A stretch of DNA of 64,000 bases from Gammaproteobacteria bacterium (lineage in GTDB: Bacteria; Pseudomonadota; Gammaproteobacteria; Eutrophobiales; Eutrophobiaceae), in assembly GCA_965243205.1 (NCBI GenBank), contig CBDEUK010000001.1, positions 32,001-96,000 of the forward strand, in the 5' to 3' direction. The first letter of the stretch is position 1, and the number at the start of each line of letters is the position of its first letter. The notes beneath the pieces are model-generated. The model did no database searches, was not told the DNA's origin, and saw nothing but the letters and a program-made list of their open reading frames with translations. Made by a program: the position numbers and the translations under genes. Shown in pieces: positions 4,709 to 34,672 of the stretch.

Positions 4709-5102
4709 GAAAGCCACCTTTTTCAATGCGTTTTACCCAGCGAGCTTCCGTGTATCGTTCTACTGCAACATAAGTTTCTTCGCTTGCATGAACCATTAGG
4801 CCGCGAGCAACAACTAACCCTAAATGCCAAGGCAAACCCTGCATGTAAATTAAAATTAAATCAAAAGGCTGTTCTCGACCTTCACGTTTTATCCATTGGT
4901 CTCGGTTTGCATTCACTAAATCACCAATAGAGTGGCTGTCCGCGGTATCATCATAACCATGAACATAAGTAGGTAACTCAATACCTAATTCACATTCATA
5001 AATAAGTTTCACCAAACCCCAGCAGTCCACGCCACTAAAGTCACGACCGTGTTCTTTAAAAGGGATTTGCATGTAAGGTTCTAACCAGGCAGGAGCTCTC
5101 AT
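4689..5102 (-). CDS. NlpC/P60 tail assembly protein (gpK-like, no JAB domain)
   Basis: GRDFSGVDCWGLV catalytic Cys motif, WHLGLVV, MVHA; lies just before the tail tip. Confidence 0.88.
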   Translation of the reverse strand: MRAPAWLEPYMQIPFKEHGRDFSGVDCWGLVKLIYECELGIELPTYVHGYDDTADSHSIGDLVNANRDQWIKREGREQPFDLILIYMQGLPWHLGLVVARGLMVHASEETYVAVERYTEARWVKRIEKGGFHVLRQD

Positions 5103-5110
5103 ACTATCAC

Positions 5111-5581
5111 CTAAAATAATGCCGGAAATTTATCAGGTGTAAATGAATCACCAGGAAACTGTTCTATTAAAAAATTAGGCCCAACAAGTTCGCCGGTAAT
5201 CTGCAAAGCATCATAATTGATTTGCTCTAAGCCTAAACCAAGCCACTCTGTTTCTACACTATCAGGGTCGCTAGCTAATACCATTTTTATATTTACGGTT
5301 GCCCGTCCACTCATAGAGCGAATAGTTTTCCCAATTTGACGATCGACATTATCAATTTTTAAACTTGCGATAGGTACCGAGTCAGCAGATTCCTCTGGTA
5401 AGGTTAACTCGTATGGCAATCCTATATATTCATTGCCGTTACTAGTATGATTAACTCCATCGTTTACAACCCGTATAGGCTCACTTAAGGAGCTATGATA
5501 AATTTCAATTAAAAACAAAAAGACTTCGTCTGTATTTTGTTTAAGCAGCTCTCTTTTAAGTTTTTCGCTTAGGTTTCTCAT
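5111..5581 (-). CDS. Minor tail protein (DUF1833 / gpL-like)
   Basis: LIEIYH..PIRVVND, LPYELTLP, LKIDNVDR and C-terminal FTPDKFPALF; position in the tail module. Confidence 0.8.
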   Translation of the reverse strand: MRNLSEKLKRELLKQNTDEVFLFLIEIYHSSLSEPIRVVNDGVNHTSNGNEYIGLPYELTLPEESADSVPIASLKIDNVDRQIGKTIRSMSGRATVNIKMVLASDPDSVETEWLGLGLEQINYDALQITGELVGPNFLIEQFPGDSFTPDKFPALF

Positions 5582-5587
5582 ACAAAA

Positions 5588-6022
5588 CTAACTCTCATTT
5601 GCATCAAACATGACAATATCGCCATCACCATAAACATCATCATCGTATATACCAGGCAACACACTTTCTGGTGTCATTTTAAGTTTTAAGTTTGCTCGCC
5701 AAATATTGCCGCGAACCAAACTGATATCTGGCTCTTCATCAATAAAAAATGTTGCAGGGCTATGTGTGCGAGGATGTATCCAGTCAAATGGAAGTGAGCC
5801 GCTAGCCAAAGTGTTGGTATAAAAATCGTCTAGAATAGCAGTCTCGTCATTTGTTAATTGAATGTGGCAATTAATTTCCCGTTCGCCAGCCGTGTATCGT
5901 CGCCTTCGTTTTGGCCCTCCGGCATCCATATCCGTTTTCAAAGTAAGCTCAGGAGGCTTTTCGCTTAAACCTTCAGAGGAAACATACTGAGGTAAAGTTA
6001 ATGGCCAAACCGCATTAGCCAC
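5588..6022 (-). CDS. Distal tail / minor tail protein
   Basis: WPLTLP, TDMDAGGPKRRRRYT, FYTNTLASGSLPFDWIHP; immediately after the tape measure gene. Confidence 0.75.
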   Translation of the reverse strand: MANAVWPLTLPQYVSSEGLSEKPPELTLKTDMDAGGPKRRRRYTAGEREINCHIQLTNDETAILDDFYTNTLASGSLPFDWIHPRTHSPATFFIDEEPDISLVRGNIWRANLKLKMTPESVLPGIYDDDVYGDGDIVMFDANES

Positions 6023-8345
6023 GGTTAATCACCTCTGGCTTATTGAAGTTTTCAAGCCGGCCTTGTCGTTTCTGACGCCCTAGCGAATTCGATACTTCAA
6101 GATCAATGATCTGTTCATTATTAGGACCAGTTGACTCGCCAGTTTTCTCTACTTTCGAATCCGAATTGTTAGTAATGTTAATAATGACATTACCTTTACC
6201 CAAGGCCTTCATTTGCCCTTTTGTAAATACCCCTTCGTCTTCATGAATAATCGCGCGCATTTCTTTTGGCATTAAACCTTGATGGAAACGTGGAGCATTA
6301 TTAAAGTTAGCTAGATTGTCTGGACGTGAAACACTGCCTTCACTGGCAAGACCACCACTATGAAAAAGTGGTATATGTGTAATTAAATTGGAAACGGGAT
6401 CGGTGCTAGTACCGCTTAAAACAAAACGATCAGGATCGTTACCTGAACCAAAAATACTTCCAAAACCACCTTCTAATAAATCACCTAACATATTAAAGCC
6501 AGGTTCGAATAATTTTGTTAAAGCTAGCTTCTCTATCTGCTTTAACAGACTTCCAATAAAATCAGAAAAATTGCCTTCCGATTCAACCAACTCATCAGCA
6601 AACGAACGACTCCACCCTTCAACGGCACGGCGTAAATCTTTAAATGTCTCTTCACCTTCTTTATCGATATCATCAAATTGTTTTTTGTGAATGTCGCTCA
6701 TACGCTCAGAATGCTGAAGCATTAAACGTTCTTTTAATTGAATGTATTCAGAATCACTGATTTCAGCCGTTGCATAAAAGCGATCAATCATGGCCAAAGT
6801 TTCATCGTAATGAGCGCGCTGCAATTCTTCTTCGGTAGCTAAGCCACGTCGCACTGTCTCTAAGTTTCTTTCTACTGCTTTGCGACGTTCTTCATATTCA
6901 CGCTTTAAATCTATATCAAGTTGCTGAAGAATTCTTTCATCTTCTAATGCATCTTGCTTAGCTTCACGCTCTGCTTTTAAACGTTCACGTTCAGCTTTAG
7001 AAGCATTTCGTTTAGCATCTTCTAAGGCTTTGACTTGATCTATTTCATCAGCTAACTGCAATAACCGTGTCGCATGTTGCGAACTAATTCCTCTAAGGGA
7101 ACCACTCTCGATTTCATTTCGAATACGCGCAGCCTCACTGACATTATTTAACGCAAACACCTGGCGTTCATATTTATCAATTAACTTAGCGCTTTGCTCA
7201 TCCAGCTTAGAAAGAGAGCCGCTTAGTCGTTGAGGCGTATCATCAAACTCAATATTGGAACCATTTAAAACATCCAAATGTTTTTTGAGTTCTACAGCTT
7301 CTTTTTTAAGCTCGGTAAGATTTTTTAATAATTGAGGGCGTCCACGAGTACGCTTTTGACTTAATCGATTTTCGATGCTGGCTATTTGAGACTCAACTTC
7401 TTTGAGTTTGTTTTCTGAAGCGCTTTGACTGAGTTCATTGATCTCAATATCAATCAAACCAATTTTGTCAGCAAGCGTCGTAAAGTTTTCAATTAAAGAA
7501 GTGGTAAACACTAATGTTTTATTGAATGCTGGAATTAATTCTTCGCCAAGCTCACTGGCTAGAATGAAAAAAGAATTTTTTAATCTATTTACATTAGCAT
7601 CAGTGCTATCCATTGCTGTTTCAAGATTCTCGCCAAAGGTGTTGCGAAGTTCCACAGCCATCTTAGGTAATAAATCATCCGCTAAGACAGAGCCCGAATC
7701 TAACATATCGTTAAGCTCTTGCGTGGTGACGCCCATAGCACGGGCAGCAATTTGGAATGCACCAGGTATACGCTCACCTAACTGACCACGTAATTCTTCA
7801 GCTTGAACATTACCCTTAGACATCATTTGCTCTATCGCACGAAGAGCGCCTTCAGTGTCGTAAGCACTAAGCTGTAAAGTACGTGAAGCCTCCATAACGG
7901 CTGTAAAAATTTCGCGTGTGGCTTCGCCTTCTAAGTTCGTCCCTTTACTTGCTGCAGTTAATTTAGCATAAGCACTAGCAGTGCTCTGTAATTCAAGACC
8001 TAAGCGTTCGGCTTCGCTTTTTACAAACAACATATTCGCTGCAGCTTCACCAGTATTATCGGAAGCAGCTAGCATTTGATTGTTCAAGCGCTCCATTTCA
8101 ATCGCTACAGGGATGACAGCATCAGCGTATCGCTTAAAAACTAAAGCAGCGGCACCTATGCCACCAGCCACCAAGCCAACACCAATAGCTAGCTTGGCCA
8201 TTCGGCTTTTTAAAACATTCGTTTTGCCGGCTAGGTTATCGCTTTCATTGGATAGACGCTTAGTTTCGCCAGTAGCCTTATCAATCTCCGTTGCGTACTG
8301 CTGACCATCCATAGTCAAAACCACTTTAATCTTTTTGTCTGCCAT
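6015..8345 (-). CDS. Tail tape measure protein
   Basis: Tape-measure motif ALRAIEQMMSKGNVQAEELRGQLGERIPGAF, long coiled coil, C-terminal FHSGG...EGVFT. ATG 8345 (MADKK) preferred because the track start lies at the terminator U-tract. Confidence 0.93.
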   Translation of the reverse strand: MADKKIKVVLTMDGQQYATEIDKATGETKRLSNESDNLAGKTNVLKSRMAKLAIGVGLVAGGIGAAALVFKRYADAVIPVAIEMERLNNQMLAASDNTGEAAANMLFVKSEAERLGLELQSTASAYAKLTAASKGTNLEGEATREIFTAVMEASRTLQLSAYDTEGALRAIEQMMSKGNVQAEELRGQLGERIPGAFQIAARAMGVTTQELNDMLDSGSVLADDLLPKMAVELRNTFGENLETAMDSTDANVNRLKNSFFILASELGEELIPAFNKTLVFTTSLIENFTTLADKIGLIDIEINELSQSASENKLKEVESQIASIENRLSQKRTRGRPQLLKNLTELKKEAVELKKHLDVLNGSNIEFDDTPQRLSGSLSKLDEQSAKLIDKYERQVFALNNVSEAARIRNEIESGSLRGISSQHATRLLQLADEIDQVKALEDAKRNASKAERERLKAEREAKQDALEDERILQQLDIDLKREYEERRKAVERNLETVRRGLATEEELQRAHYDETLAMIDRFYATAEISDSEYIQLKERLMLQHSERMSDIHKKQFDDIDKEGEETFKDLRRAVEGWSRSFADELVESEGNFSDFIGSLLKQIEKLALTKLFEPGFNMLGDLLEGGFGSIFGSGNDPDRFVLSGTSTDPVSNLITHIPLFHSGGLASEGSVSRPDNLANFNNAPRFHQGLMPKEMRAIIHEDEGVFTKGQMKALGKGNVIINITNNSDSKVEKTGESTGPNNEQIIDLEVSNSLGRQKRQGRLENFNKPEVINRG

Positions 8346-8361
8346 ATAAATTCCACGCATA

Positions 8362-8426
8362 AAAAAAGCCGGAGCCCCTTTCGAGGATCCGGCTTTTCGC
8401 TTTAAATACGTTATGCCTTAGTTCAG
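8362..8426 (-). terminator. Conserved 65-bp leader with intrinsic-terminator hairpin, copy A (in front of the tape measure gene)
   Basis: Minus strand CTGAACTAAGGCATAACGTATTTAAAGCGAAAAGCCGGATCCTC-GAAA-GGGGCTCCGGC-TTTTTTT; near-identical to 20453-20516. Confidence 0.85.
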
Positions 8427-8441
8427 TAAATTATAGCAAGA

Positions 8442-8711
8442 TTATTTCAAATCAGACCCGCAATATTTACATTTTATTGCTGCTTTTTTAATGATTTCAG
8501 CACAATAAGGGCATTCTTTCATGTCGCCATCTTGAACCCGCTGCTGTTCCAATTTTTCAGTATTCGTTTTTAACGCTGCTACGATAACAAGACCGAGTAA
8601 GGGAGATATGAACAAACACATGATGAAGGCTTTCAGCCCTGAGCGCCCTTTTTTATGAGCAAACACCGCTACAGCTGCAGACAACAAAAACCATAAAAAG
8701 AGAAATTCCAT
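8442..8711 (-). CDS. Moron-like membrane protein with C-terminal zinc ribbon
   Basis: Two TM helices and KECPYCAEIIKKAAIKCKYCG; strong RBS TAAGGAGG; extended -10-like TGATATAGT upstream; interrupts the chaperone-tape measure junction. Confidence 0.8.
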   Translation of the reverse strand: MEFLFLWFLLSAAVAVFAHKKGRSGLKAFIMCLFISPLLGLVIVAALKTNTEKLEQQRVQDGDMKECPYCAEIIKKAAIKCKYCGSDLK

Positions 8712-8751
8712 AAACGCCTCCTTACTGCGTATTTCTAGACTATATCATGGT

Positions 8752-9060
8752 TTAATCTGTGGGTTCACCACCAAACATCACATGCTCAATTTCAGAAAGC
8801 AATACCAACGACAAGTCTAAACGCCACCCTTTTGCCTCGATAACAGGAATATACACATTAAAATCTAAGCCAGTGACACCAGATAGATTGTTGCGCACTT
8901 GTCGCCAAAATTGACAAAATAAATCCCATACTGGTTTTTCCCATTTTAACTCAGGCGGCAGATCCTCCGGTTCTGGTTCCCAGCCTAAATCAAGAATATC
9001 TCTTAAGGCTTTGTCTCCGCCCCTGCGGTACCATCCTGCAAGGGCGGCGAGCCTTCCTTT
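8752..9060 (-). CDS. Tail assembly chaperone, -1 frameshift extension (gpT / DUF1799-like; absent from the ORF track)
   Basis: Open -1 frame overlapping the end of 9003-9413 with no usable start codon: KGRLAALAGWYRRGG...VWDLFCQFWRQVRNNLSGVTGLDFNV...; W-x-LF and G-x-TGLD pattern. Confidence 0.75.
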   Translation of the reverse strand, partial: KGRLAALAGWYRRGGDKALRDILDLGWEPEPEDLPPELKWEKPVWDLFCQFWRQVRNNLSGVTGLDFNVYIPVIEAKGWRLDLSLVLLSEIEHVMFGGEPTD

Positions 9061-9413
9061 GCTTGCGCTTCCTCTTTAACTACATGCATTTGCAAGGCTT
9101 TAACTTTGCCCATGATAAAATCTCGCGCTTTACCGACTTTCATTAATCGCGCGATGTTTACATCATTACATTCAGCAGGCTGCTCACGCTCATCAACAAC
9201 GCCTGTCCATTGTTTAATGCAATGCAAACCGACTAGCTCTGCATATTTATCTTGATCAACTTTTATATCAACAATGCGATCGTTTTTAACTTCCCGTTCG
9301 GTAGATTGTTCTCTAAACAAAGAATCCATGTCTTCTAAAAGAGGCTTCAATGTAAAAACGATGTCAGCCTCTTCCCATTTGGTCTTGACAGTAAAATCGC
9401 CAATCCGGAGCAT
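9003..9413 (-). CDS. Tail assembly chaperone (gpG-like)
   Basis: CIKQWTGVVDE motif; lies between the tail tube and tape measure genes. Confidence 0.75.
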   Translation of the reverse strand: MLRIGDFTVKTKWEEADIVFTLKPLLEDMDSLFREQSTEREVKNDRIVDIKVDQDKYAELVGLHCIKQWTGVVDEREQPAECNDVNIARLMKVGKARDFIMGKVKALQMHVVKEEAQAKEGSPPLQDGTAGAETKP

Positions 9414-9631
9414 TAAACGCTCACCTTTTCAAAGCCGTACGCATCTTCAAGCGCTTTAATAAGCTTCGGATCGGACGTAGAGACAATTCCATTTTGAATA
9501 ACAACATCATGCTCACCTACTTTCATTTTGCATTGCTCATAAGCAGAGGATTTAAAGGTGACTTCCTTGTCTTTAACGGCTTCCTTATCTTTAGTACCCA
9601 CGGCCCCTGCAGTCGTGTTTTCTTTTGACAT
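9413..9631 (-). CDS. Small phage hypothetical protein
   Basis: RBS AAGAGGT; stop overlaps the next start. Confidence 0.6.
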   Translation of the reverse strand: MSKENTTAGAVGTKDKEAVKDKEVTFKSSAYEQCKMKVGEHDVVIQNGIVSTSDPKLIKALEDAYGFEKVSV

Positions 9632-9739
9632 AAGCTTTACCTCTTTTTAAAAGTGTTTTCTTTACTTAAACAATATTTTAAAAACAAAACATTATTAAGA
9701 AATTGTTTTATATAAAAATATTTCTTGATTCAGTTTTGA

Positions 9740-10696
9740 TTAATAACTCGGAATTGAGTTAACCAACTCAATCGTTGGCGGGTTTGCATTAGAGTGCGCG
9801 CGCCAGTTAGTATCAATATGTAAACCTTTAGATGATTGAATTTCGTGTGGCATCTCTTCGAATTCAACGGCTGGTAAAATTAATTTCAAACTAGCATCGC
9901 CAGCTGCATTTTTACTTTCTAAGGTAAGTGGCAATGAAGTATGGTTCTTACCATAATCACGAATAGCTTCAGCAGTGTCTAAAATAAATCTTGCACTCCC
10001 ACTAATGGCAGGCTGGCCAACTAATACACGGCCATAGCCCTCTAATCCATCAGCTAACGTTTGACCTTCAAGATCGTTCGTTATTTCTACGCTTGCCTCA
10101 ACAACATCCCCCAATGTGCTAGCGCCTACCACATCATAAACATTACCTTGTCGGCCTTGCGCACGGTTCTTTGCGTAAACCGTTGGCGCAGCATCCCATG
10201 GCGTGGTTGGAGCAGGTTCAACTTCTTCGGCTCCGATCAATTCAAGACTCATGTTTTGTTCAGCCTCGATCACATTCCAACTTAATTTGCTTACCATCAT
10301 GCCTAGCCAGCGCTCGTAATCTGCTGGAGCGCCTAAATAACCTAACTCCATTAAAGCCGAAGGACGATCATTTAAATCGCATGTAAAAACATGAGTGTAC
10401 GGACCAGCGCCAGTAGTTGATGGAGCTCCCCATAACAAAGTTAACCATTGTCCAATTTCGTTTAAACATAAAATAGAACTTAAGCCACCTGTGACCATGG
10501 CATCGGCTGTATCGGTTTTTTCCTCCATAGGAGTAGCCTTTACAGTCGGATCTTGAACTCGAACCGGATTACGACCTATTTTTAAGCCTGGATTAAACTT
10601 CATAGAAAAAGCAGCGGCAGCACCTGGCGCAGTTCGATAAGTGCTTTCGCGTTGTAAAAGTAATTGCGTATTACGACCGTGTCTAACTTCTGCCAT
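9740..10696 (-). CDS. Major tail (tube) protein
   Basis: QRESTYRTAPG N-terminus, GAGPYTHVFT and ASVEITNDLE beta-rich segments; 318 aa; RBS GGAG; position. Confidence 0.8.
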   Translation of the reverse strand: MAEVRHGRNTQLLLQRESTYRTAPGAAAAFSMKFNPGLKIGRNPVRVQDPTVKATPMEEKTDTADAMVTGGLSSILCLNEIGQWLTLLWGAPSTTGAGPYTHVFTCDLNDRPSALMELGYLGAPADYERWLGMMVSKLSWNVIEAEQNMSLELIGAEEVEPAPTTPWDAAPTVYAKNRAQGRQGNVYDVVGASTLGDVVEASVEITNDLEGQTLADGLEGYGRVLVGQPAISGSARFILDTAEAIRDYGKNHTSLPLTLESKNAAGDASLKLILPAVEFEEMPHEIQSSKGLHIDTNWRAHSNANPPTIELVNSIPSY

Positions 10697-10708
10697 TGTA
10701 TTTCTCCA

Positions 10709-11125
10709 CTAATCTAATTCTTTCCACGTTAAACTGAATGCAACAAAACCATAAGGCGCTTCTAACTGCGCAGATTGCACATAGCTATTAAAATCAAAAC
10801 ATCTTGATGTACCGGTTGCTTGGTCCAGGATGTCTACCAAGTCATTGACTGCTTGCAGCTCTCTATTTTCTATCTCGATACCTTCCGAACCTTCAGGCAA
10901 AAGAAACATAAAAATGACATGAGCGCCAAGCTCTCCAGACATCTCCCGTAAAGTAATAGGTGAATTAAAACTGCTGCCACCATTCGCCATAACAATCCAA
11001 TAACCTTTAACTAAATCTTCATTACTAATGTTATGACGTTCTTTAAAGCTTCTTTTTACGACTTCATTCGGCTTAGCGTTTTGAATATCAACCGATAACG
11101 CATCTAAGACTTGAGAAAAATTCAT
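10709..11125 (-). CDS. Tail terminator / tail completion protein
   Basis: 138 aa between the gp10-like gene and the tail tube gene; called from synteny only. Confidence 0.55.
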   Translation of the reverse strand: MNFSQVLDALSVDIQNAKPNEVVKRSFKERHNISNEDLVKGYWIVMANGGSSFNSPITLREMSGELGAHVIFMFLLPEGSEGIEIENRELQAVNDLVDILDQATGTSRCFDFNSYVQSAQLEAPYGFVAFSLTWKELD

Positions 11126-11622
11126 GCAAACACCTCTTTAAGCCCTTCATTGACACCTTGATCAAGTAAAGCAGTAATTCGATCGCTTTTACTTTCTAAT
11201 GCAGGTAACACAAAAGGTTTGGCTTTAATTCCTTCTTCATAAATAGCGCGCTGAATTAAAAATGCTAAACTATCCAAACTCACACCTTCACGCGGTTGAA
11301 TACGTTTTACTTTTATCCAGTCCTTCAATGTTCTAATGCTTGGCGCACCACCAGGTTTTGTACCTTCTTCAACAAAAATTGCATGGCGTGCTCCCACGGT
11401 AACTTCAACTTCTGGCTTCAATAAAGTGCCGGTCTCTTTAACTTGGCCAGAGCTTATTAATTGTGAATAAGCAACGCTTTTATTCTTTCGAAGATGACGC
11501 TGCATCTCCCGCCACAGTTCATGGCCAGCACGCATCATTTTTGAAACGATCTTACGATTCATTACGCGAGGCGATTTACTAAAAGCATCTAGAACTTCTT
11601 TGGCGTCGAACTTAACACTCAT
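11122..11622 (-). CDS. HK97 gp10-like head-tail / tail completion protein
   Basis: HAIFVEEGTKP and IKAKPFVLPALE motifs. Confidence 0.75.
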   Translation of the reverse strand: MSVKFDAKEVLDAFSKSPRVMNRKIVSKMMRAGHELWREMQRHLRKNKSVAYSQLISSGQVKETGTLLKPEVEVTVGARHAIFVEEGTKPGGAPSIRTLKDWIKVKRIQPREGVSLDSLAFLIQRAIYEEGIKAKPFVLPALESKSDRITALLDQGVNEGLKEVFA

Positions 11623-12248
11623 GCTGTCTGCCTATAAAATTCGTTCATTAAATCTTTATACAACGCGTTCGGAGTCGAATTGCGCGGTGTACCAGAAATG
11701 CCATCTCGGATACTGACTGGTTTATGGCTATTACGCATAGCAACCGTTTTCATTACTTCTGCTTGGCATCGCAATAAAAACAACCCTTTGTCTTCTGCTC
11801 TTATAGTGGTGTTATTGGCAGTATCCGATAACACATGAAGTTTGGAGCACATAAAAGTAAAATCCGTGCCACAACAATTAATTAAATGCGCATCCGGCGT
11901 AGGCGTTAATAATAAAATTATTTGGTTATTGGTAGGATCGTGTAACTCTTTAACTTCAGGGATAATCTTTGGATAGTTCTGCTCCCAAGGCTTACGAGTA
12001 CTGATTTCATTCATACCGTAAACGACATGAATCATATGCATAAACGATTGCGGAGCAATATAGTCTGCCTTGCCAGCCTCGATGGTTACGGAATCCTGTA
12101 CCCTATAAAGACGATAACGACTAAAATCAGGAAGCGCGCCCGCAATAACTGAATCATAGTCGTCGCTATTATCTTTGACGAAAACACTAGCAACATCCTT
12201 GAGAGAATCTTTTAGTTCCGTTATGAAAGCATTCTTAGTAAAACTCAT
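11619..12248 (-). CDS. Head-tail adaptor / connector protein
   Basis: Position before the gp10-like gene; size and helix-beta-helix pattern. Confidence 0.5.
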   Translation of the reverse strand: MSFTKNAFITELKDSLKDVASVFVKDNSDDYDSVIAGALPDFSRYRLYRVQDSVTIEAGKADYIAPQSFMHMIHVVYGMNEISTRKPWEQNYPKIIPEVKELHDPTNNQIILLLTPTPDAHLINCCGTDFTFMCSKLHVLSDTANNTTIRAEDKGLFLLRCQAEVMKTVAMRNSHKPVSIRDGISGTPRNSTPNALYKDLMNEFYRQTA

Positions 12249-23111: not shown

Positions 23112-24494
23112 CTATTTATTACTCACATCGGTCGCACTTTCTTTTTTCTTCGCGTTCCCTGGTGTTATTTTCACACTACGCGACCCAATTCCGTCTTCAT
23201 AAGTTGGGTAAGGATCTCCCCCTTCGAGCTCATCTGTCAAACGTTGCTTTTCTTTAGCTGGAACAAGTCCCATAGTTTCAAAAACAGTGGTTTTACTTGC
23301 GCCGCCCGCTTGCTGTTTCAAGGCTCTGTCGGTTGCCTGGTTAAGAGTTTCAGTAACTCGTTCGTTAAACTCAACTTTTACACCATGATTACGTGGATCA
23401 ATATTGTTTAACAACAACTCAAGCTCAAAACCTTCTTGATAAACTGCAGACAGCTCGTCTTGCATGGAATCCACTTCTTCAAAAAAATCACGTTTCATGT
23501 CTTCTAGTACATCACGCGAAATATTTTGCGCGTAACCAAACAAGGCCTTTGGAGCAGGCGCACCAGTAAAAAAAGTATCAACTAAATAAAGAACATCGTT
23601 TATCTGATCTAAGTTTTCATCGCCTTGTAATGCGCCTACAGCACCTTTTTTATTTAGAAAATAATCGAGATCAATAGCTTGAGTTTTTCTTCTCTGTTCG
23701 ACGTCGTTTTTGTAGGCTTCCAATTCTGCTTCAGTAGCTCCTTCAAGCACATGAACTTTTTGAGATGGAGCTCTGTCGTGTCTTCGAATAACTAAATCTT
23801 CATCCGTCAAAGTCATTTTCTTAAATATTGTCATTGCTGCATCGAGCATCGGTCTACCCATGCAACCTAAATCATCATAGTTATCTGGATCCAGCCTACC
23901 GTGAGATATTTGCCATAAAGGAAAAGAAGCTATCTTCTCGCTAGTCATAGCATCTAGTTGATGGTAAGCAGTTTGTATGTCTTTAAATATGCCATTCTCA
24001 CTCACATCAGGAATCATTGTTTCGCTGGGCATGCGCACCGCATTCCATATTTTATTATCTGCGCCTAAAACCCACTGCAAAAACAAATTGCCTTCCTTTA
24101 TGTAGCCACTAGCATCAGACATAAGTTTGGCTCTGTTACCAAGGCCTAGTCGATATGAAAAGTCATCCCAAATTTTTAATACTCGTTTATTATTGTCTTT
24201 AACGTTGCAACGTAATCCTGACTTTGTCATAACAGTACTAGTTTTTCTGTGAATCCGTTTGCAACGCGGATCCTTCCGGTCCATATCTCTAATAGACAAA
24301 ACAATATTACGAAAATTAGAATCGACCCAAAGGAGACGATATAAATACTGCATTCGATTTTCAGGATTTGGACGGTAACCAAGTTCGCCAGGTAAGTTAT
24401 TAACCTGGTTAGAAATCTTTGAGTCACTAATGGACTTATTACCAACTTTAAACAGCTCTCTTAACTGTCGAAATTGAGAAGAATAACTTTTCAT
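23112..24494 (-). CDS. Portal protein
   Basis: 460 aa directly after TerL; YIKEGNLF, GRPMLDAA and helical C-terminus typical of portals. Confidence 0.8.
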   Translation of the reverse strand: MKSYSSQFRQLRELFKVGNKSISDSKISNQVNNLPGELGYRPNPENRMQYLYRLLWVDSNFRNIVLSIRDMDRKDPRCKRIHRKTSTVMTKSGLRCNVKDNNKRVLKIWDDFSYRLGLGNRAKLMSDASGYIKEGNLFLQWVLGADNKIWNAVRMPSETMIPDVSENGIFKDIQTAYHQLDAMTSEKIASFPLWQISHGRLDPDNYDDLGCMGRPMLDAAMTIFKKMTLTDEDLVIRRHDRAPSQKVHVLEGATEAELEAYKNDVEQRRKTQAIDLDYFLNKKGAVGALQGDENLDQINDVLYLVDTFFTGAPAPKALFGYAQNISRDVLEDMKRDFFEEVDSMQDELSAVYQEGFELELLLNNIDPRNHGVKVEFNERVTETLNQATDRALKQQAGGASKTTVFETMGLVPAKEKQRLTDELEGGDPYPTYEDGIGSRSVKITPGNAKKKESATDVSNK

Positions 24495-27128: not shown

Positions 27129-27164
27129 AAAAAAGGGTTTCATAATGAAACCCTTTCTTGTTTT
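27129..27164. terminator. Bidirectional intrinsic terminator, copy 1
   Basis: AAAAAAGGGTTTCA-TAA-TGAAACCCTTTCTTGTTTT. Confidence 0.8.
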
Positions 27165-27224: not shown

Positions 27225-27626
27225 TTAATTATAATTACTAATTGAATCGCAGTATGAGGGTGCAAGCAATAATGTGCTATTTTTATTGAAATTAATTATT
27301 AATAATTCATGATTTTTTGTATATTTTCCTTTCAATAAAGTATCAAACAATCTTGGTTTTAAATATTCATTTTTTAAATGATGTGGAAATTTATATTCAA
27401 AAAGTTTTTTTTCAGCGGTTTTTATCCTAAAACAATCAAAATTAAAAGGGACCTCTTTTTGTTCTCCTGAATTAATAGAATCTAGTTTAACTTTAGAATA
27501 TATAGAAATAATAAAAATTTCTTTATTAGTTTCATTAGCTAAAATTAACTTAGAATTAATGGCACACCCAGACAGTAATATAAATAAAAACCAAATAGAC
27601 ATTAAATGTTTAGCAAATAAATACAT
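27225..27626 (-). CDS. Lipoprotein, putative Rhs immunity protein
   Basis: Lipobox LSG-C after a hydrophobic stretch; very AT-rich; start overlaps the Rhs stop. Confidence 0.7.
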   Translation of the reverse strand: MYLFAKHLMSIWFLFILLSGCAINSKLILANETNKEIFIISIYSKVKLDSINSGEQKEVPFNFDCFRIKTAEKKLFEYKFPHHLKNEYLKPRLFDTLLKGKYTKNHELLIINFNKNSTLLLAPSYCDSISNYN

Positions 27627-30600
27627 TAAAACACTGTATCTTGCATCGGCCCTGTTTCCATAAAATTATTTTGATGCCATTTATCAACTGGATGCAATAA
27701 ATCAGGATGTGGTTCTCTAAAAATTGAAGTCATCCCACCAATAATATGAGAAGGGAAATAAGCTGGGCCCAGAATCTGAGATTGTAAGGTATGTCTGAAC
27801 TCCTCACCATAAACTGTAAAATCTGTTGGAGTTTTTAAGAAATGAACATTCGATGAATCAGGTGATACATTCTGTCCATAAATAACAGCATTTCCAAATG
27901 TCATAGCTGTTGCCATCAGTGGATTATTTGTAAATTGCACAGCATTATTCTCAAATGTGATATTAGGATTAGTATTCATTGCTAATCCTACAAGATGACC
28001 AATACCTCCGTAAGTTAAACCTACAATTGTATTTGGCCCTGCCCATATTTTACTAGCAACGTCTAATGATCCTCTAAAAACTTTTCCTTCAAAATTATAA
28101 CCACTATTTGTACCATCTAATTGCAATGTAGAATTATATTTAAATGCTGCATTTGCAAATGAAAATGCGGTAGATGATTTGAAGCCATCTAAGAAGTCAC
28201 CACCTTCTAGCTCCGAACGAGCACCACCAATTGTACCATTAGCCAATACTCTAGAAGCACTCCATGTATTTCCAAAATATGATTTTACTCCGCCTAAAGC
28301 CGCTCCAGATAAACCACCTAATACTCCACTCTCTAAATCTCCACCTGTAATTGCTCCAAACACAAACCCACCTGTTGCGCCACCAATAATATTTGCTACA
28401 GTAAACGCGGCCTCTAAAGTTATTGCACTACCAGATGCAATAGCCCCAGCAGCAAAATCTAATGCTGCATTATAAGCTAACCCTCCCGTATACCATGCAG
28501 TAACGCCTATAACTAATGCATTTATTAATGAGTTCCCTCCTGTAATTTTATTTAATGTGCTATTTATAAAACCAAGAACTCCATCTATCACATCAGTTAC
28601 AAAATCAATTATATCATCCCCGATTGTTACAGCTACAATAGCAGCAGCAATAAGACCAATAATGAAATGCCCGCTTGGATCGGTAAAACTCAACGGATTA
28701 TTATTTACATAAGTGTATCGATTAAAGTTTTGCTGAACTTCTGGGTATTGTATAAATGGATCTGGACTTAAGAAGCGCCCTAAGTCAGGGTCATACACAC
28801 GACCACCCATGTGAATGAGACCCACATCATCTAAGTATTGATGCCCAGTAAAACATCGGTTGGTTTCACTCGAGAACACTTGTGCTATGGCATCATCCCA
28901 GGTCGGTTGACGACGCTTACCATGTGGGTCATAACTTAAACTCTCAGCAACACCTGCCGTCTCATCCGTAATAGCTGTTATCGAACCTAAATGGTCTCGA
29001 TGTAAATAACGCGTCTCTTCTGTATCATTGTTAGTACTCGAAATATCATCAATCGATTTAAACAGGCCAATCGTTTGACCACCCGCTTTTAAATAATGAA
29101 TATAAGTGGTTTTACCTACCTTGCCGTCTATCTCAAACACCGAGTTCACATACGTACGGATTTCAGATGGATTCGAACCATTCGTCACCGTTTGTTGCAC
29201 CATCTCCCGACTCGCACCGTACTTAAACGCAATGTTGGTAGAACCTTGATCGATTTGTAATGGCTTGTTGTAACTGCTCCACGTTATGGTGCGCGTAGCG
29301 CTTGCAGTAAAATTATAGTTTTGTGTGACGTTACCGTTCGCATCATAGAGAACGTTATGACCACCGATCGATGTCACCGCATGTGGACGTGGACCACCAT
29401 AAATATACGTACCACTGACACCCGTCTTAGTTTTAATATTACCTAACGCATCATAGGTGTAGTTTTTTATCGTCCCGTTAAGAACGCTTTGTTTAATACG
29501 ATTCAAATCGTCGTATAAAAAACTTTCTGTATTGGTCTGAGTAATGTCTTCACGTTCAGTTAAGTTACCAATGACATCAAATGTGAACGTTAAGTCTTGA
29601 ATGTTATTGACCAACGCAGGTGAGCTCGTACCAATCGCATTCACCAAACCCGTCTCCGGTGTATACCCCATGTTGGTGATCACACCATTGTCGTATTTTT
29701 GTTTGGTCACCTTACCTTCGGCATCCATCAACATCACGGTGTAATACTCTTCCGTGATGTCATCGGCGTTATAAACCAAATCCAGATAACCGCGTGCATT
29801 GTATTGATGTTTGACTTTCAAACGGCCACTATCATGCGCCCGTTGTGGATAGGTAATGACATCGACTCTGCCTGAACTGTCGTAGGTTTGTTCTTGAACA
29901 TGTGTACCCACCACACCCGTGATGGTGGTTGAGGTCGAACTCAACCGACCGTAACCATCGTACACATAACTCTCATCTTTGCCTTCAGCCGAACTGACAC
30001 TAATGAGTTTGCCAATCGAGTGTGCTGTTTGACCCGCCGCGTAGTTACTGCCACTCGCATAGTCATACACCCATGTTGATGTTCCTTCGGCTTCGACTCT
30101 CTGCGTCATGCGACCTAACTTATCATAGGTCATTGTCACCGTTTGACTCTTTGCATCCGTTTGACTCACCAACTCACCTAAGGCGTTGTAGGTATAACTC
30201 CAGATACCCATATCCGGGTCATCCATACCCGTCTTACGACCGCGTAAGTCATATAGATTCGTCGTTGTGTTGTTATTGCTATCGGTTAGCGTCCTTAAGT
30301 TACCAAAGGGTTCATATTCATAGGTAGCGATATTGTTGAGATTGTCTTCAGTTGATACCAACTGTCCAATCGCATTATTGGTACGAGTATTAGTTTGACT
30401 TAAAAAAACATTGGTCTCGCTGACCGACAAACCGACATAACTCGTAGTAGTTTCAACACCGTTCACATGATCTGGATGCGGCGCGATGCGTTTAACTGAA
30501 CGACCCACCACATCGTATTCAATTGCGTGCCAGTAACTGGTACTACCCGCGTAGTATGGACGAGATTTGGCCACTACTTGACCCAACTGATTGTATTCCG

Positions 30601-31516
30601 TATCAACGTATATCAACGTACCATCAAAGCCTTGGCTTTGAACTCTCAACTCACGACCTAAGGCATCTGAATACGCCACACTAGTTGGAGCACCACTAGC
30701 TTGAGTCGTAACCGATAATGCACCGTTCAATGGACATGCAGTATTGCCACTTTCTCCCTGGAAGCCATGACACCATTCTCGCGTCACGGTGGTCGACGTG
30801 CCATCGGCCCTAACCTCACTCGTTTGACGGCCAAATGAGTCATAAACCCATGTCGTCATTAATTGATTTGGACCTGTTAAGGTCTTCATCACACCAAACT
30901 TCGCATCATAGGTTCGAGTTTCATTGTGGCCCAACGCATTTGTCGTGCTAATTGCAAATTGACCACGCGCATCATACATTGTCGTTGTCGTACGTGATGC
31001 AATAGCAGTAGCTCCGCTTCCACCAGTTACTGTCACACTGGTTTTATTACCAAATGCCACAGTATCGTATCCATAAGTTGTTTCCAGTCGTAATGACGGA
31101 GTGTCAGGTTCGATAATTTCTTTACTTAATAAACCATTTGCGTTGTATTCAAAACTCGATGTACGAGTACCGCAGGTTCCTGTCGTTGGATCAGAATTTG
31201 AACACGTACCGTCTCTCGGATCACCATTGCTTGGTAGATACTGAGTCACCTCGGTTCTTTGCAGCCTATCTAAAAACCATTGAGTTTCATTAGGCGGATA
31301 ATACTGATTAGCCGTATAAGTAGTGTGCGTATCACCATTGCATGTCGTATCTTTACATGTAGTTGAAACCGTAATGGTAGTGGGATTACCGTGATCATCA
31401 TAACTAGTGGTAGTTACCACCTCACTTACTTTGCTACTGGTCGCTGCAAACACTTGCCCTGCAAATAAGAAAAGTAAAGCAATAATAAATTGAGTAACTA
31501 GATTATAGCGTTGCAT
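27626..31516 (-). CDS. RHS/YD-repeat protein with Rhs core and C-terminal toxin; own signal peptide
   Basis: YD repeats; core YLHRDHLGS...GLIHMGGRVYDPDLGRFLSPDP...NPLSFTDPSG. ATG 31516 with RBS AAGGAG and signal MQRYNLVTQFIIALLFLFAGQVFA. Confidence 0.92.
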   Translation of the reverse strand: MQRYNLVTQFIIALLFLFAGQVFAATSSKVSEVVTTTSYDDHGNPTTITVSTTCKDTTCNGDTHTTYTANQYYPPNETQWFLDRLQRTEVTQYLPSNGDPRDGTCSNSDPTTGTCGTRTSSFEYNANGLLSKEIIEPDTPSLRLETTYGYDTVAFGNKTSVTVTGGSGATAIASRTTTTMYDARGQFAISTTNALGHNETRTYDAKFGVMKTLTGPNQLMTTWVYDSFGRQTSEVRADGTSTTVTREWCHGFQGESGNTACPLNGALSVTTQASGAPTSVAYSDALGRELRVQSQGFDGTLIYVDTEYNQLGQVVAKSRPYYAGSTSYWHAIEYDVVGRSVKRIAPHPDHVNGVETTTSYVGLSVSETNVFLSQTNTRTNNAIGQLVSTEDNLNNIATYEYEPFGNLRTLTDSNNNTTTNLYDLRGRKTGMDDPDMGIWSYTYNALGELVSQTDAKSQTVTMTYDKLGRMTQRVEAEGTSTWVYDYASGSNYAAGQTAHSIGKLISVSSAEGKDESYVYDGYGRLSSTSTTITGVVGTHVQEQTYDSSGRVDVITYPQRAHDSGRLKVKHQYNARGYLDLVYNADDITEEYYTVMLMDAEGKVTKQKYDNGVITNMGYTPETGLVNAIGTSSPALVNNIQDLTFTFDVIGNLTEREDITQTNTESFLYDDLNRIKQSVLNGTIKNYTYDALGNIKTKTGVSGTYIYGGPRPHAVTSIGGHNVLYDANGNVTQNYNFTASATRTITWSSYNKPLQIDQGSTNIAFKYGASREMVQQTVTNGSNPSEIRTYVNSVFEIDGKVGKTTYIHYLKAGGQTIGLFKSIDDISSTNNDTEETRYLHRDHLGSITAITDETAGVAESLSYDPHGKRRQPTWDDAIAQVFSSETNRCFTGHQYLDDVGLIHMGGRVYDPDLGRFLSPDPFIQYPEVQQNFNRYTYVNNNPLSFTDPSGHFIIGLIAAAIVAVTIGDDIIDFVTDVIDGVLGFINSTLNKITGGNSLINALVIGVTAWYTGGLAYNAALDFAAGAIASGSAITLEAAFTVANIIGGATGGFVFGAITGGDLESGVLGGLSGAALGGVKSYFGNTWSASRVLANGTIGGARSELEGGDFLDGFKSSTAFSFANAAFKYNSTLQLDGTNSGYNFEGKVFRGSLDVASKIWAGPNTIVGLTYGGIGHLVGLAMNTNPNITFENNAVQFTNNPLMATAMTFGNAVIYGQNVSPDSSNVHFLKTPTDFTVYGEEFRHTLQSQILGPAYFPSHIIGGMTSIFREPHPDLLHPVDKWHQNNFMETGPMQDTVF

Positions 31517-31634
31517 AGCGTCTCTCCTTAAGACCGGTGCTGTTGCAAATACATTTTTAATAACATTAAATTGAAAAAATGATTGGGCTTTAAAAATCAA
31601 ATCCAGTGTATTAAGTGAGTTCTGTTTCATGACA

Positions 31635-34298
31635 TTAATCCAATTCATAGTCTGTTTTCGTCACACTTGATGCATAGGGAAACAATACACCAGGATGTGG
31701 ATCGTATAATGGTAATGTTGAACTCGTCTTAATCGTCTCAACACCATCCTGCGTCTTCTTATTCGCAAAGGCCGTTATGACTTTACTTAATGGTGCACCG
31801 TCATATTCCTGTTTCGTCTCTTTCACCATACCCACATATGGATAAGCTTGTTCATACGTCGTAGTGGTAATGATGTTGGTATCAACATTAGTACTCGTCA
31901 TTGTTTGAAATCCTAAGAAACCTCTAAAATAAGAACTCTTTGCAATACTATATTGATACGTCGTTTCCGATTGATGAGGAACAATCAAACCACCAGCAAG
32001 ATAGTTCGCATCATTTTTAACTGAACTCACCACATAAACAGAACCGATGATATCCACTTCCGGATAAACAGAACCGCTGCCCTTTGTATAAATATTACTG
32101 TCCGTTAATGACTTGTATGAAATAGAGATTGATATGCCAAGAGAATCGGTAATGGAAGTAGCCTGGTCGGAAATATTTCCATCCGCTAAAAATACATACG
32201 CCAAACCCTCTTCATTGTGCGACATGATAAAATCCGTTAAACCATCTCCATTCACATCTTGGTAATAACGATCGTACGTCGAATTCCATCCACTCTGTTC
32301 AATATCCGTACCCACATAATTTTCTACAAACGAACCATCTCCCTCTCCTAAAAATACATACACCAAACCCTCTTCATTGTGCGACATGATAAAATCCGTT
32401 AAACCATCTCCATTCACATCTTGGTAATAACGATCGTACGTTGAATTCCATCCACTCTGTTCAACATCCGTACCCACATAACTTTCTACAAAAGAACCAT
32501 CTCCCTCTCCTAAAAATACATAGACGTATCCTTCATCGTTATGCGATAAGATATAATCAATTAAGCCATCTCCATTCACATCTCGAAAATAACGATCGTA
32601 CGTTGAATTCCATCCACTCTGTTCAATATCCGTACCCACATAATTTTCTACAAACGAACCGTCTCCTTCTCCTAAAAATACATACACCAAACCCTCTTCA
32701 TTGTGCGACATGATAAAATCCGTTAAACCATCTCCATTCACATCTTGGTAATAACGATCGTACGTCGAATTCCATCCACTCTGTTCAATATCCGTACCCA
32801 CATAATTTTCTACAAACGAACCATCTCCCTCTCCTAAAAATACATACACCAAACCCTCTTCATTGTGCGACATGATAAAATCCGTTAAACCATCTCCATT
32901 CATATCTTGGTAATAACGATCGTACGTTGAATTCCATCCACTCTGTTCAACATCCGTACCCACATAACTTTCTACAAAAGAACCATCTCCCTCTCCTAAA
33001 AATACATAGACGTATCCTTCATCGTTATGCGATAAGATATAATCAATTAAGCCATCTCCATTCACATCTCGAAAATAACGATCGTACGTTGAATTCCATC
33101 CACTCTGTTCAATATCCGTACCCACATAATTTTCTACAAACGAACCGTCTCCTTCTCCTAAAAATACATACACCAAACCCTCTTCATTGTGCGACATGAT
33201 AAAATCCGTTAAACCATCTCCATTCACATCTTGGTAATAACGATCGTACGTCGAATTCCATCCACTCTGTTCAATATCCGTACCCACATAATTTTCTACA
33301 AACGAACCATCGGCTGGATTTTGTTCCCAAGTTATTTCAATCGGCTTAAAACATTTCTGAGTAGTTGAACCATCACATTCGGTAAGATGGGTTATACGTG
33401 AACGACTCGCGGCACCGTTATTGTCATACGTCAGCTGATAATCTCTTACCGGTGTTGTGTAGTCATTATCCGTATACGTCTTTATGTTTGTTAAACGTTC
33501 CGTATTCTTGATAAGAGAACCCGCAAAGTACATCGGTGTAATGTCTGTCCTTGTCTCATACTCAAACTTAACTTTCGCATATGGACTCAAGTTCGAACTG
33601 TTACCCGTATAATTAATCTCGGTTGGCTTGTACGTCCCATTCGTTCCATCTTCACTGTACGTCACCTTCAAGTAGTTACCCACCGTGTCACTGATTTTGT
33701 TCACCGCCCAAAGCCTCACATCCGTTTTGCCTTGTGCTTCTATCCTTGAGTCATTGGTGTATCCATACTCCATCACCTGACCACTCTTCGTCCATGCCTT
33801 AAACTTCTCAGGACCATTCCCCGTATCTCCATAAGAAATGACCTTCGTAAAACTCTCTATCTCAGTCCGATACTCCGTACCCTCTGCTCCATAAACACCA
33901 CTCACTGAAATCAATCGTTGACCATCAATACAAAAACGGTCGTTAGCATCAAAGTCAACGCCATCAATAAAACCATCCACCACGCGATTCGCAGGACAAC
34001 GTGTAATCACAGACAAACCACCCAAACTAAATCCAACTCCCATCAAACCATTACCACTTCGTGAGTTATACGATAACGATAACGAGGGTTGCATACCCGC
34101 TGTACCTGGGGGCACAACAATAGGAACCGAATAGTTCGCACCACCACTCGAATCCACACTGAACTCACCCGCCGTCACACCAGGTTCGGTGGCTTGAATG
34201 GAAAAAGAAATGAATGAAAGAAAAAAAAGAAAAGGAAAAACGGTATGCCTTAACAACACACGACAAAGAATACGAATATCAAACCTTGAATACTCCAT
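31635..34298 (-). CDS. SpvB/TcB-like N-terminal domain plus FG-GAP (VCBS-like) propeller plus TcdB-midN-like region; signal peptide
   Basis: GEFSVDSSGGANYSVPIVVPPGTAGMQPSLSLSYNS, DRFCIDGQRL, seven DVNGDGL.D repeats, RGFLGFQ. Signal ends FSIQA; RBS GGGGAG. Confidence 0.9.
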   Translation of the reverse strand: MEYSRFDIRILCRVLLRHTVFPFLFFLSFISFSIQATEPGVTAGEFSVDSSGGANYSVPIVVPPGTAGMQPSLSLSYNSRSGNGLMGVGFSLGGLSVITRCPANRVVDGFIDGVDFDANDRFCIDGQRLISVSGVYGAEGTEYRTEIESFTKVISYGDTGNGPEKFKAWTKSGQVMEYGYTNDSRIEAQGKTDVRLWAVNKISDTVGNYLKVTYSEDGTNGTYKPTEINYTGNSSNLSPYAKVKFEYETRTDITPMYFAGSLIKNTERLTNIKTYTDNDYTTPVRDYQLTYDNNGAASRSRITHLTECDGSTTQKCFKPIEITWEQNPADGSFVENYVGTDIEQSGWNSTYDRYYQDVNGDGLTDFIMSHNEEGLVYVFLGEGDGSFVENYVGTDIEQSGWNSTYDRYFRDVNGDGLIDYILSHNDEGYVYVFLGEGDGSFVESYVGTDVEQSGWNSTYDRYYQDMNGDGLTDFIMSHNEEGLVYVFLGEGDGSFVENYVGTDIEQSGWNSTYDRYYQDVNGDGLTDFIMSHNEEGLVYVFLGEGDGSFVENYVGTDIEQSGWNSTYDRYFRDVNGDGLIDYILSHNDEGYVYVFLGEGDGSFVESYVGTDVEQSGWNSTYDRYYQDVNGDGLTDFIMSHNEEGLVYVFLGEGDGSFVENYVGTDIEQSGWNSTYDRYYQDVNGDGLTDFIMSHNEEGLAYVFLADGNISDQATSITDSLGISISISYKSLTDSNIYTKGSGSVYPEVDIIGSVYVVSSVKNDANYLAGGLIVPHQSETTYQYSIAKSSYFRGFLGFQTMTSTNVDTNIITTTTYEQAYPYVGMVKETKQEYDGAPLSKVITAFANKKTQDGVETIKTSSTLPLYDPHPGVLFPYASSVTKTDYELD
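32178..33311 (-). repeat. Seven tandem 162-bp (54-aa) FG-GAP-type repeats with a 486-bp higher-order period
   Basis: Units are near-identical, in order A-B-C-A-B-C-A; shadow ORFs at 32441 and 32927 are identical and 486 bp apart. Confidence 0.95.
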
Positions 34299-34403
34299 GC
34301 TCTCCCCTTAGAGCGTATGTTTTTAAACTCCCTTTTAATTTAAGTAACAAAAGGGCTTATTAAAACTGAGGCCCGATTATTACCGATAGTTAATATTTTC
34401 GCA

Positions 34404-34631: not shown

Positions 34632-34672
34632 AAATAAAAAAAGGGTTTCATAACGAAACCCTTTTTTTATTT
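34632..34672. terminator. Bidirectional intrinsic terminator, copy 2 (after galU)
   Basis: AAATAAAAAAAGGGTTTC-ATAAC-GAAACCCTTTTTTTATTT, perfect 18-bp arms. Confidence 0.88.

Follow-up and report, generated by a model that had tools for sequence, protein, structure and literature searches.

Rhs, Tc, and teneurin cocoons have been seen as single folding units or, in the case of Tc, as two cytoplasmic chains. A locus in a 64,000-nucleotide (nt) stretch of DNA from a bacterium of the family Eutrophobiaceae (Gammaproteobacteria; assembly GCA_965243205.1, contig CBDEUK010000001.1, positions 32,001 to 96,000 of the forward strand; here referred to as the window) raises the question of whether such a toxin shell can also be made from two separately exported halves. 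On the minus strand of the window, two adjacent genes, here named A and B, each start with a signal peptide-like sequence and together encode the modules of an SpvB-Rhs toxin; they are followed by a lipoprotein gene (I). A preliminary description of the window had proposed a two-chain Rhs cocoon that is exported chain by chain and assembled in the periplasm or outside the cell. Our analyses support this proposal: the second chain has a signal-type N-terminus, the sequencing data show no assembly error at the junction, and homologues with the same split exist in other genomes. A and B thus represent a real, conserved two-gene SpvB-Rhs toxin, and there is good computational support that its two chains are exported and complete one shell. 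More specifically, we assign a probability of roughly 0.6 to the interpretation that the locus is a three-gene operon, which originated by fission of a Sec-exported SpvB/propeller/RHS toxin and the halves of which are exported and then joined in the periplasm. The single-chain class and the two-chain Tc cocoons are already known; what is new is the natural, conserved cut of a Sec-exported SpvB-Rhs toxin.

The seam between genes A and B

Gene A (31635..34298, minus strand), which reads from 34298 to 31635, encodes 887 amino acids (aa) comprising a signal peptide, an SpvB domain, an FG-GAP propeller, and a midN-like shell segment, as identified by open reading frame (ORF) reading and Pfam; these modules would form the lid half of the shell. 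Its ribosome-binding site (AAGGGGAGA; 34301..34309, minus strand) is read directly a few nt 5' of the ATG at 34298. The SpvB domain (residues 51-227; 33618..34148, minus strand) matches PF03534 with 9e-16, and this region has weak similarity to the N-termini of TcdB1 and YenB. Seven propeller blades (Pfam FG-GAP_3, 5.5e-32) are encoded by a tandem array (32186..33311, minus strand) that can be described as 7.0 units of 162 bp (90% matches) or as 2.3 units of 486 bp (99% matches). While the preliminary description held that the first gene contains SpvB, FG-GAP, and midN parts, only the first two reach significance in A itself. The TcdB_toxin_midN-like segment (31842..32156, minus strand) is a sub-threshold match on the last 200 aa of A (Pfam; E 0.0023, 17.7 bits versus a cut-off of 24.8), and midN (PF12256) is annotated in relatives of A in precomputed domain lists. 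The blade units of 162 bp are near-identical, and the blade triplets are 99% identical, which suggests that the array is the product of a very recent duplication or conversion. The blade copy number depends on the assembly because the short-read contigs from four runs end ~30 nt beyond position 32200, i.e., inside the array.

Gene B (27626..31516, minus strand; 1296 aa) encodes a signal peptide, an RHS shell, an Rhs core, and a C-terminal toxin based on ORF reading together with Pfam and NCBIfam, and would provide the cup half together with the cargo. The RHS repeats match PF05593 (RHS_repeat) with 1.7e-30 in Pfam and TIGR01643 with 1.5e-22 in NCBIfam. The Rhs-associated core, i.e., the autoprotease region (28667..28933, minus strand; TIGR03696, 72.5 bits, 2.9e-20), ends with PLSFTDPSGH. 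The motif of the Rhs core is given as PxxxxDPxGL in a recent preprint (10.1101/2025.05.08.652813); in B, the final position is H instead of L. Genes A and B are each present in a single copy in the genome.

The gene structure and the exact position of the seam can be read directly from the DNA. As described previously, the first gene ends cleanly with ...TKTDYELD and the second starts at 31516 behind the ribosome-binding site AAGGAG (31529-31524), which is located 7 nt 5' of the ATG. The "118-bp gap" between the two genes is correct as a distance, because 118 nt separate the stop codon of A from the ATG of B (spacer 31517..31634, minus strand); however, its description as a gap needs amending because the frame of B is open throughout it. 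This frame contains in-frame ATGs at 31630, in the spacer, and at 31648, just upstream of it, and is open back to the latter, which is 11 nt before the stop codon of A, giving a maximal ORF of 1340 aa that overlaps A.

Conservation of the split

The same seam is present at the DNA level in two additional genomes. In G001:C34, from the same genus, two A genes (A1, 846 aa; A2, 890 aa) are followed by B, and in G502:C4, from a different genus of the same family, B comes after the terminal part of an A gene. The window proteins are 53-58% (A) and 62% (B) identical to the G001 orthologues. The A genes of all three loci end alike (...YEL followed by D, N, GVTP, or ESTP), AGGAGA is located 6-7 nt ahead of the ATG of B in all three, and the B proteins begin with a basic stretch that is followed by a hydrophobic core, a small-x-small site, and a common first strand. 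In the protein database, P0005-P0008 are B proteins with the same start, as is P0027 from a different lineage, which has a signal peptide and the same first strand; P0124-P0126 are stand-alone A proteins that stop at the seam. Thus, homologues that share both the split point and the second signal peptide, which the preliminary description had suggested looking for, do exist.

A and B are most closely related to fused single-chain proteins. Two of these, G001:C1 (2752 aa; same genus as the window) and G014:C10 (2948 aa; another genus), read through the seam uninterrupted, with the sequence ...YEF/L followed by 3-4 residues and then the first strand. Because the fused relatives continue across the seam, mature A plus mature B corresponds to one fused protein. 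Judged from these sequences, the fission gained a stop codon, a spacer, a ribosome-binding site, and a signal peptide and lost nothing of the mature protein. This bears on the idea that a single long gene is decaying here or was broken by an error in sequencing or assembly. Plain frameshifts do occur in related genes, once inside midN (G412:C20) and once at the seam without a signal peptide (G330:C19). At the window junction, however, the 190 nt that are inserted do not repeat the fused sequence in a shifted frame but contain a ribosome-binding site and a signal peptide; G001 and G502 have preserved both frames, at 53-64% identity; and contigs assembled from four sequencing runs of one sample, probably the source of the assembly, cover 30900-32200 with 0 differences and 0 gaps. 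The read check across the junction thus agrees with the assembly, and we regard decay or error as very improbable. In G330:C19 (L078 ~4272-4371), the plain frame change breaks the SpvB-Rhs gene exactly at the YELD seam, beside consecutive lysine codons; possible causes are an error in sequencing, gene decay, and slippage.

We surveyed 400 evenly sampled genomes of the class and 126 genomes of the order. In the class, 33 of the 400 genomes matched, and 25 of 40 matched places are in open frames of at least 1700 aa. Seven short frames were considered as further splits and rejected: those in G395, G212, G318, G274, and G074 are cut by contig ends, that in G412:C20 is the plain frameshift inside midN mentioned above, and G098 has one TAG within the match and not the same split. 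In the order, 10 of the 126 genomes had a match; G000, G001, and G502 are the three in which the split was confirmed. Based on these counts, the single chain is the rule, and the split is rare but conserved. A search with the first 260 aa of B in a set of genome contigs that excludes the genome of the window returned only two distant loci (Rhizocola and Luteolibacter), which were not used.

A maximum likelihood tree of the shell region was calculated from 32 of 35 rows; P0010, P0064, and P0028 were dropped due to short coverage. Six split B proteins are in one clade (91/91), within which the fused protein of G001:C1 is nested (98/94), while the split P0027 joins fused proteins (100/100). The split label requires at least three changes on this tree, and a single change was sufficient in 0 of 200 bootstrap trees. 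Because several changes are required, the tree supports repeated fission, re-fusion, or recombination at the seam.

Both genes had been described as having a signal-type N-terminus. Using a home-made script, and not SignalP, that scores for a basic start, a hydrophobic core, and a small-x-small site, we found these features on both chains. The candidate signal peptide of A covers residues 1-36 (34191..34298, minus strand) with the site IQA↓T, and that of B covers residues 1-24 (31445..31516, minus strand) with the site VFA↓A. Signal-like features are present in 7 of 7 B proteins with the same seam and in 4 of 4 A-type proteins that were scored. In the seven B proteins, the 11-residue Kyte-Doolittle mean of the hydrophobic core is 1.65-2.91, with 2.91 for B of the window, and the cleavage-like sites are VFA↓A, AIA↓V, AMA↓A, ALA↓G, VMA↓A, VWA↓T, and ALA↓A; by comparison, none of 925 and none of 840 11-residue windows of the mature chains reach 2.0. 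The homology to fused proteins restarts 2-3 residues past the site of B. That the signal peptide features are kept even though the sequences diverge is as expected under selection for export. In our reading, both peptides would direct export and be cleaved off.

The open frame of the spacer is also conserved. The frame of B contains 0 stop codons in 39, 55, and 42 codons in the three loci read at the DNA level (31517-31648 in the window, 7584-7756 in L020, and ~9100-9252 on the minus strand of L073), while the two other frames contain 2-5 stop codons each. Among 20000 composition-matched shuffles of each spacer, 867, 896, and 1181 (4.3%, 4.5%, and 5.9%), respectively, had zero stops. In G001 and G502, the stop codon of A overlaps with an in-frame ATG (ATGA); the window has the ATGs at 31648 and 31630 instead. 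The stop-free spacer possibly reflects translational coupling that feeds ribosomes into B.

These observations allow for two different scenarios for the translation of B. In the first, B is mainly translated from a start coupled to the stop codon of A, and the hydrophobic stretch, then 40-80 residues in, is an extended signal peptide or an uncleaved anchor; B would be in the inner membrane or be exported with different timing. In agreement with this, the spacers lack stops, and gene callers placed the starts of P0004, P0007, and P0009 upstream. However, AGGAGA 6-7 nt before the inner ATG is the only conserved spacer sequence, the translated spacers are dissimilar to one another by eye, and the small-x-small site is exactly where the homology to fused proteins restarts. 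We consider an upstream start unlikely; it is compatible with export of two half-shells. In the second scenario, a programmed frameshift at the stop codon of A generates a fused A-spacer-B chain, for which the frame of B is open to the stop codon of A in all three loci. We rejected programmed frameshifting as a candidate: the shift needed is +1 in the window and -1 in G001 and G502, and this difference in direction makes a conserved frameshift unlikely. Moreover, no slippery heptamer was seen at the stop codon of A, and the fused product would hold a hydrophobic segment within the shell. This scenario is hardly credible.

Two chains proposed to form one shell

To assess whether the two chains fit together, as the preliminary description expected of one continuous RHS barrel, we modeled residues 690-887 of A with residues 25-800 of B, using alignments, and included three controls. 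The A-B model had interface scores (interaction prediction score from aligned errors [ipSAE]) of 0.80, 0.81, and 0.80 versus 0.00 for the best of the three controls; solved complexes attain the score of the A-B model in 58 of 80 cases and mismatched pairs in 2 of 110 cases. At least 95% of the contacts are shared among the runs, and the partner predicted local distance difference test score (pLDDT) is 90-92. In the model, residues 875-887 of A are predicted to pair antiparallel with residues 25-39 of B, i.e., the C-terminal strand of A joins the N-terminal strand of mature B, with additional contacts to the next shell turn (B residues 263-362). Because similar cocoons have been solved and fused homologues were part of the alignments, the model supports likeness to a continuous shell and not binding as such.

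Two loci contain two tandem A genes, namely, G001:C34 (L020 2187-4727 and 4915-7587) and the locus of P0125/P0126. In both cases, the A paralogues are mosaics. A1 and A2 of G001:C34 are 88-100% identical over SpvB and midN versus 30-40% over the propeller, and P0125 and P0126 are 86-96% identical in the shell parts versus 17-45% in the propeller. This identity pattern supports that the propeller half was duplicated and diversified while the parts that fit B were kept, and it lends support to the earlier suggestion that the two halves can be swapped independently (86-100% in the shell versus 17-45% in the propeller). The propeller may be the receptor-binding part.

The mosaic paralogues are also relevant for the possibility that A and B no longer cooperate, with B being a Sec-exported Rhs toxin that is functional without a partner and A a secreted propeller protein with a separate role, e.g., as an adhesin. 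There are many signal peptide-containing Rhs proteins of ~1150-1200 aa without an SpvB part, and an upstream partner gene was seen for only one of them. However, in the split described here, the end of A and the start of B invariably fall on complementary strands of a single shell, the two genes are adjacent in all three loci with DNA, the A paralogues have diverged in the propeller and remained 86-100% identical in their shell-forming parts, and the predicted interface is confident. Independent functions of A and B, therefore, appear rather improbable.

How would the chains leave the cell? The genome is 100% complete (2.79 Mb) and was the basis for searches for secretion systems. The preliminary description held that TcA, VgrG, and PAAR are missing. 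PAAR, the type VI secretion system sheath family VipB, and the VgrG family Phage_GPD had no match in the complete genome, while controls were positive in 3, 1, and 2 genomes, respectively, and the absence of PAAR and VgrG can be upheld on this basis. The TcA families PF18276 and PF03538 also had no match, but the control genomes were silent as well. The secretin GspD of a type II secretion system (T2SS) is present in full (541.6 bits). A route from Sec to the periplasm and from there via the T2SS, or by another kind of release, is plausible. A link to the T2SS is given for Rhs families of Xanthomonas and Ralstonia in the preprint cited above (10.1101/2025.05.08.652813).

Several points weigh against export and joining of two half-shells as the function of the locus. 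The signal peptides come from crude scoring, and B of G001 has the weakest hydrophobic core (1.65) and a long basic start. With the frame of B open from the stop codon of A in 3 of 3 loci, B may carry an extension of 38-57 residues before the hydrophobic core that could alter targeting. P0005, P0007, P0008, and P0027 are protein-level evidence, the A-gene neighbors having been read at the DNA level in three loci, and P0125 and P0126 are tied to P0005 only by contigs of equal size (13,747). In the modeling, the alignments included fused homologues in both chains, and the A-B score may reflect solved TcB-TcC and Rhs cocoons learned by the modeling program. Finally, a closed cocoon is large for the T2SS channel.

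Taking these points into account, we favor the following sequence of events for the two-chain toxin. The fission would have separated two neighboring beta-strands of the shell by a stop codon, a spacer, a strong ribosome-binding site, and a newly acquired Sec signal peptide. A (the lid, including the first turns of the shell) and B (the cup, with the remaining RHS shell) would each pass Sec unfolded and have their signal peptides cut off. In the periplasm, residues 875-887 of A would complement the sheet by pairing antiparallel with residues 25-39 of B, closing a BC-like cocoon around the self-cleaved toxin, while the lipoprotein would shield the envelope of the producer. The complex would then exit through the T2SS or in some other way. 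With the halves on separate genes, one B could be served by alternative A subunits with different propellers. More generally, and with less than even confidence, we suggest that two Sec-exported half-shells can be joined into an Rhs cocoon outside the cytoplasm, with interchangeable lids, the propellers of which set the target, for each cup; that the spacer couples the synthesis of the halves; and that the seam is a preferred fission point, cut or rejoined at least three times, with a second seam used in a larger family (see below). The natural split makes it testable how Sec-exported cocoons fold, load the toxin, and close. It implies that a shell can be completed by addition of a lid after membrane passage, marks a site in the shell that tolerates a break, and, by way of the loci with two A genes, points to the propeller as the variable, and probably target-recognizing, part of SpvB-Rhs toxins that lack TcA.

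Among known systems, the locus resembles two classes. Single-chain TcdB/TcaC-type toxins are described as consisting of a signal peptide, SpvB, an integrin-like propeller, RHS, and a C-terminal toxin (Zhang et al. 2012, PMC3482391). The locus shares the domain order and the Sec signal at the front, with candidates for the variable C-terminal toxin and, downstream, for the immunity gene; the N-terminal signal peptide, SpvB, and propeller are all present on A. The difference is that the modules are not on one polypeptide: the chain is interrupted behind the midN-like segment, and a separate signal peptide precedes the second part. The available text of Zhang et al. 2012 (PMC3482391) describes no split of a TcdB/TcaC-type chain.

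The second class is the TcB-TcC pairs (e.g., TcdB2-TccC3 and YenB-YenC), which likewise form a two-chain RHS cocoon from a chain with SpvB and a propeller and a chain with the Rhs core and the toxin; by sequence comparison, A matches TcdB1/YenB, and B matches TccC2/TccC3. In contrast to these pairs, the seam in the window (A residue 887) is located ~300 shell residues earlier according to a very rough mapping, and both chains have signal-like N-termini, while the Tc subunits are, to our knowledge, cytoplasmic and without signal peptides. Moreover, Tc toxins require TcA. No match to midC was obtained at E ≤ 0.01 on the whole A and B proteins using Pfam. YenC1 and YenC2 are alternative partners in a Tc toxin; at the loci with two A genes, however, the duplicated half is the propeller half and not the toxin half. 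That one partner of the Tc cocoon can pair with alternative subunits is also reported in PMC11067744, and natural B-C fusions in Tc toxins are reported by Song et al. 2021 (PMC7861908).

The RHS/YD shell enclosing a C-terminal toxin is shared with Rhs effectors of type VI secretion systems, which differ in being single chains that need PAAR/VgrG. AB5 toxins such as cholera toxin and heat-labile enterotoxin have subunits with separate Sec signals, are assembled in the periplasm, and are exported by the T2SS. The separately signaled subunits and the T2SS secretin in the genome of the window make these a functional analogy only: the folds are unrelated, and AB5 toxins assemble by oligomerization, while the proposal for the window is completion of one beta-sheet shell. 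Bacterial teneurin-like toxins are described as Sec-exported single chains with no obvious delivery machine (PMC13018210); they share the RHS/YD shell and the Sec signal with the window and differ in being a single chain. In the literature available to us, we found no description of a two-gene SpvB-Rhs system with two signal peptides, although supplements might list such loci.

Cargo, surroundings, and a second split family

The region of B beyond the Rhs core is ~340 aa long and contains the C-terminal cargo (27629..28666, minus strand), which by sequence reading consists of a glycine-rich hydrophobic stretch followed by a domain of ~190 aa. The toxin domain matches no family in Pfam, NCBIfam, or the protein atlas. 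The last 190 residues (27629-28198) fall into unnamed atlas clusters, the nearest of which are mostly from Bacteroidota, and the nearest named lead in the atlas is a weak one to eCIS_core (0.85). The toxin sequence EEFRHTLQSQ resembles what we take to be the metal-binding motif of eCIS_core, with the first histidine replaced. Directly downstream, the lipoprotein gene (27225..27626, minus strand) encodes 133 aa with the lipobox LSGC, and its start overlaps the stop codon of B (TAATG). This protein also has no match in Pfam, NCBIfam, or the protein atlas and is a putative immunity protein for the toxin. A candidate immunity lipoprotein and a glycine-rich hydrophobic stretch would fit a toxin that acts on the envelope. 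On a different contig, there is an orphan Rhs-core-like fragment (G000:C2:371940-372278) that is 38% identical to residues 835-950 of B.

A split between an SpvB gene and an Rhs gene also occurs in a second family. In G339:C1 (L077), gene A' (4619-8002; 1128 aa from the chosen start) and gene B' (8009-11959), which has its own signal peptide, are 3 nt apart; this A'-B' pairing was seen once at the DNA level. As in the window, a gene with SpvB, propeller, and midN is paired with a signal peptide-containing Rhs gene, while the seam of A' is ~100 residues deeper in the shell than that of A in the window, and A' has a conserved tail that A lacks. In the A' family (P0132-P0147), 13 of 16 matches are 1120-1221 aa long, and 13 of 16 matches plus the query share this tail of ~45 residues with the acidic end LLL(E/D)D. 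"Hypothetical protein ABE85_08620" of Mitsuaria sp. 7 is a named example of A'. Many of the signal peptide-containing Rhs proteins of ~1150-1200 aa (in Herbaspirillum, Bradyrhizobium, and others) start at the point where B' starts. This second family is larger than that of the window and seems to use the same logic. Because it occurs in cultured Burkholderiales, the split is not confined to one lineage.

The three genes of the window are bracketed by two near-identical copies of a terminator-like hairpin. Copy 1 (34632..34672, minus strand; hairpin core 34640-34664) is at the upstream edge, and copy 2 (27132..27156, minus strand) is at the downstream edge. The 25-nt hairpin has only these two copies in the 2.79-Mb genome, ~7.5 kb apart and both embedded in an imperfect direct repeat of ~45 nt. 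Because the only two copies flank them, A, B, and the lipoprotein gene look like one inserted module, and the hairpin repeats look like an insertion scar beside the terminator of the preceding sugar-nucleotide transferase gene. Four genes downstream of the toxin module, an ORF of 460 aa (23112-24494) matches a T4-like phage portal family (2.7e-8); the ORFs around it could not be assigned to a family. A phage origin is possible for the region below the toxin module.

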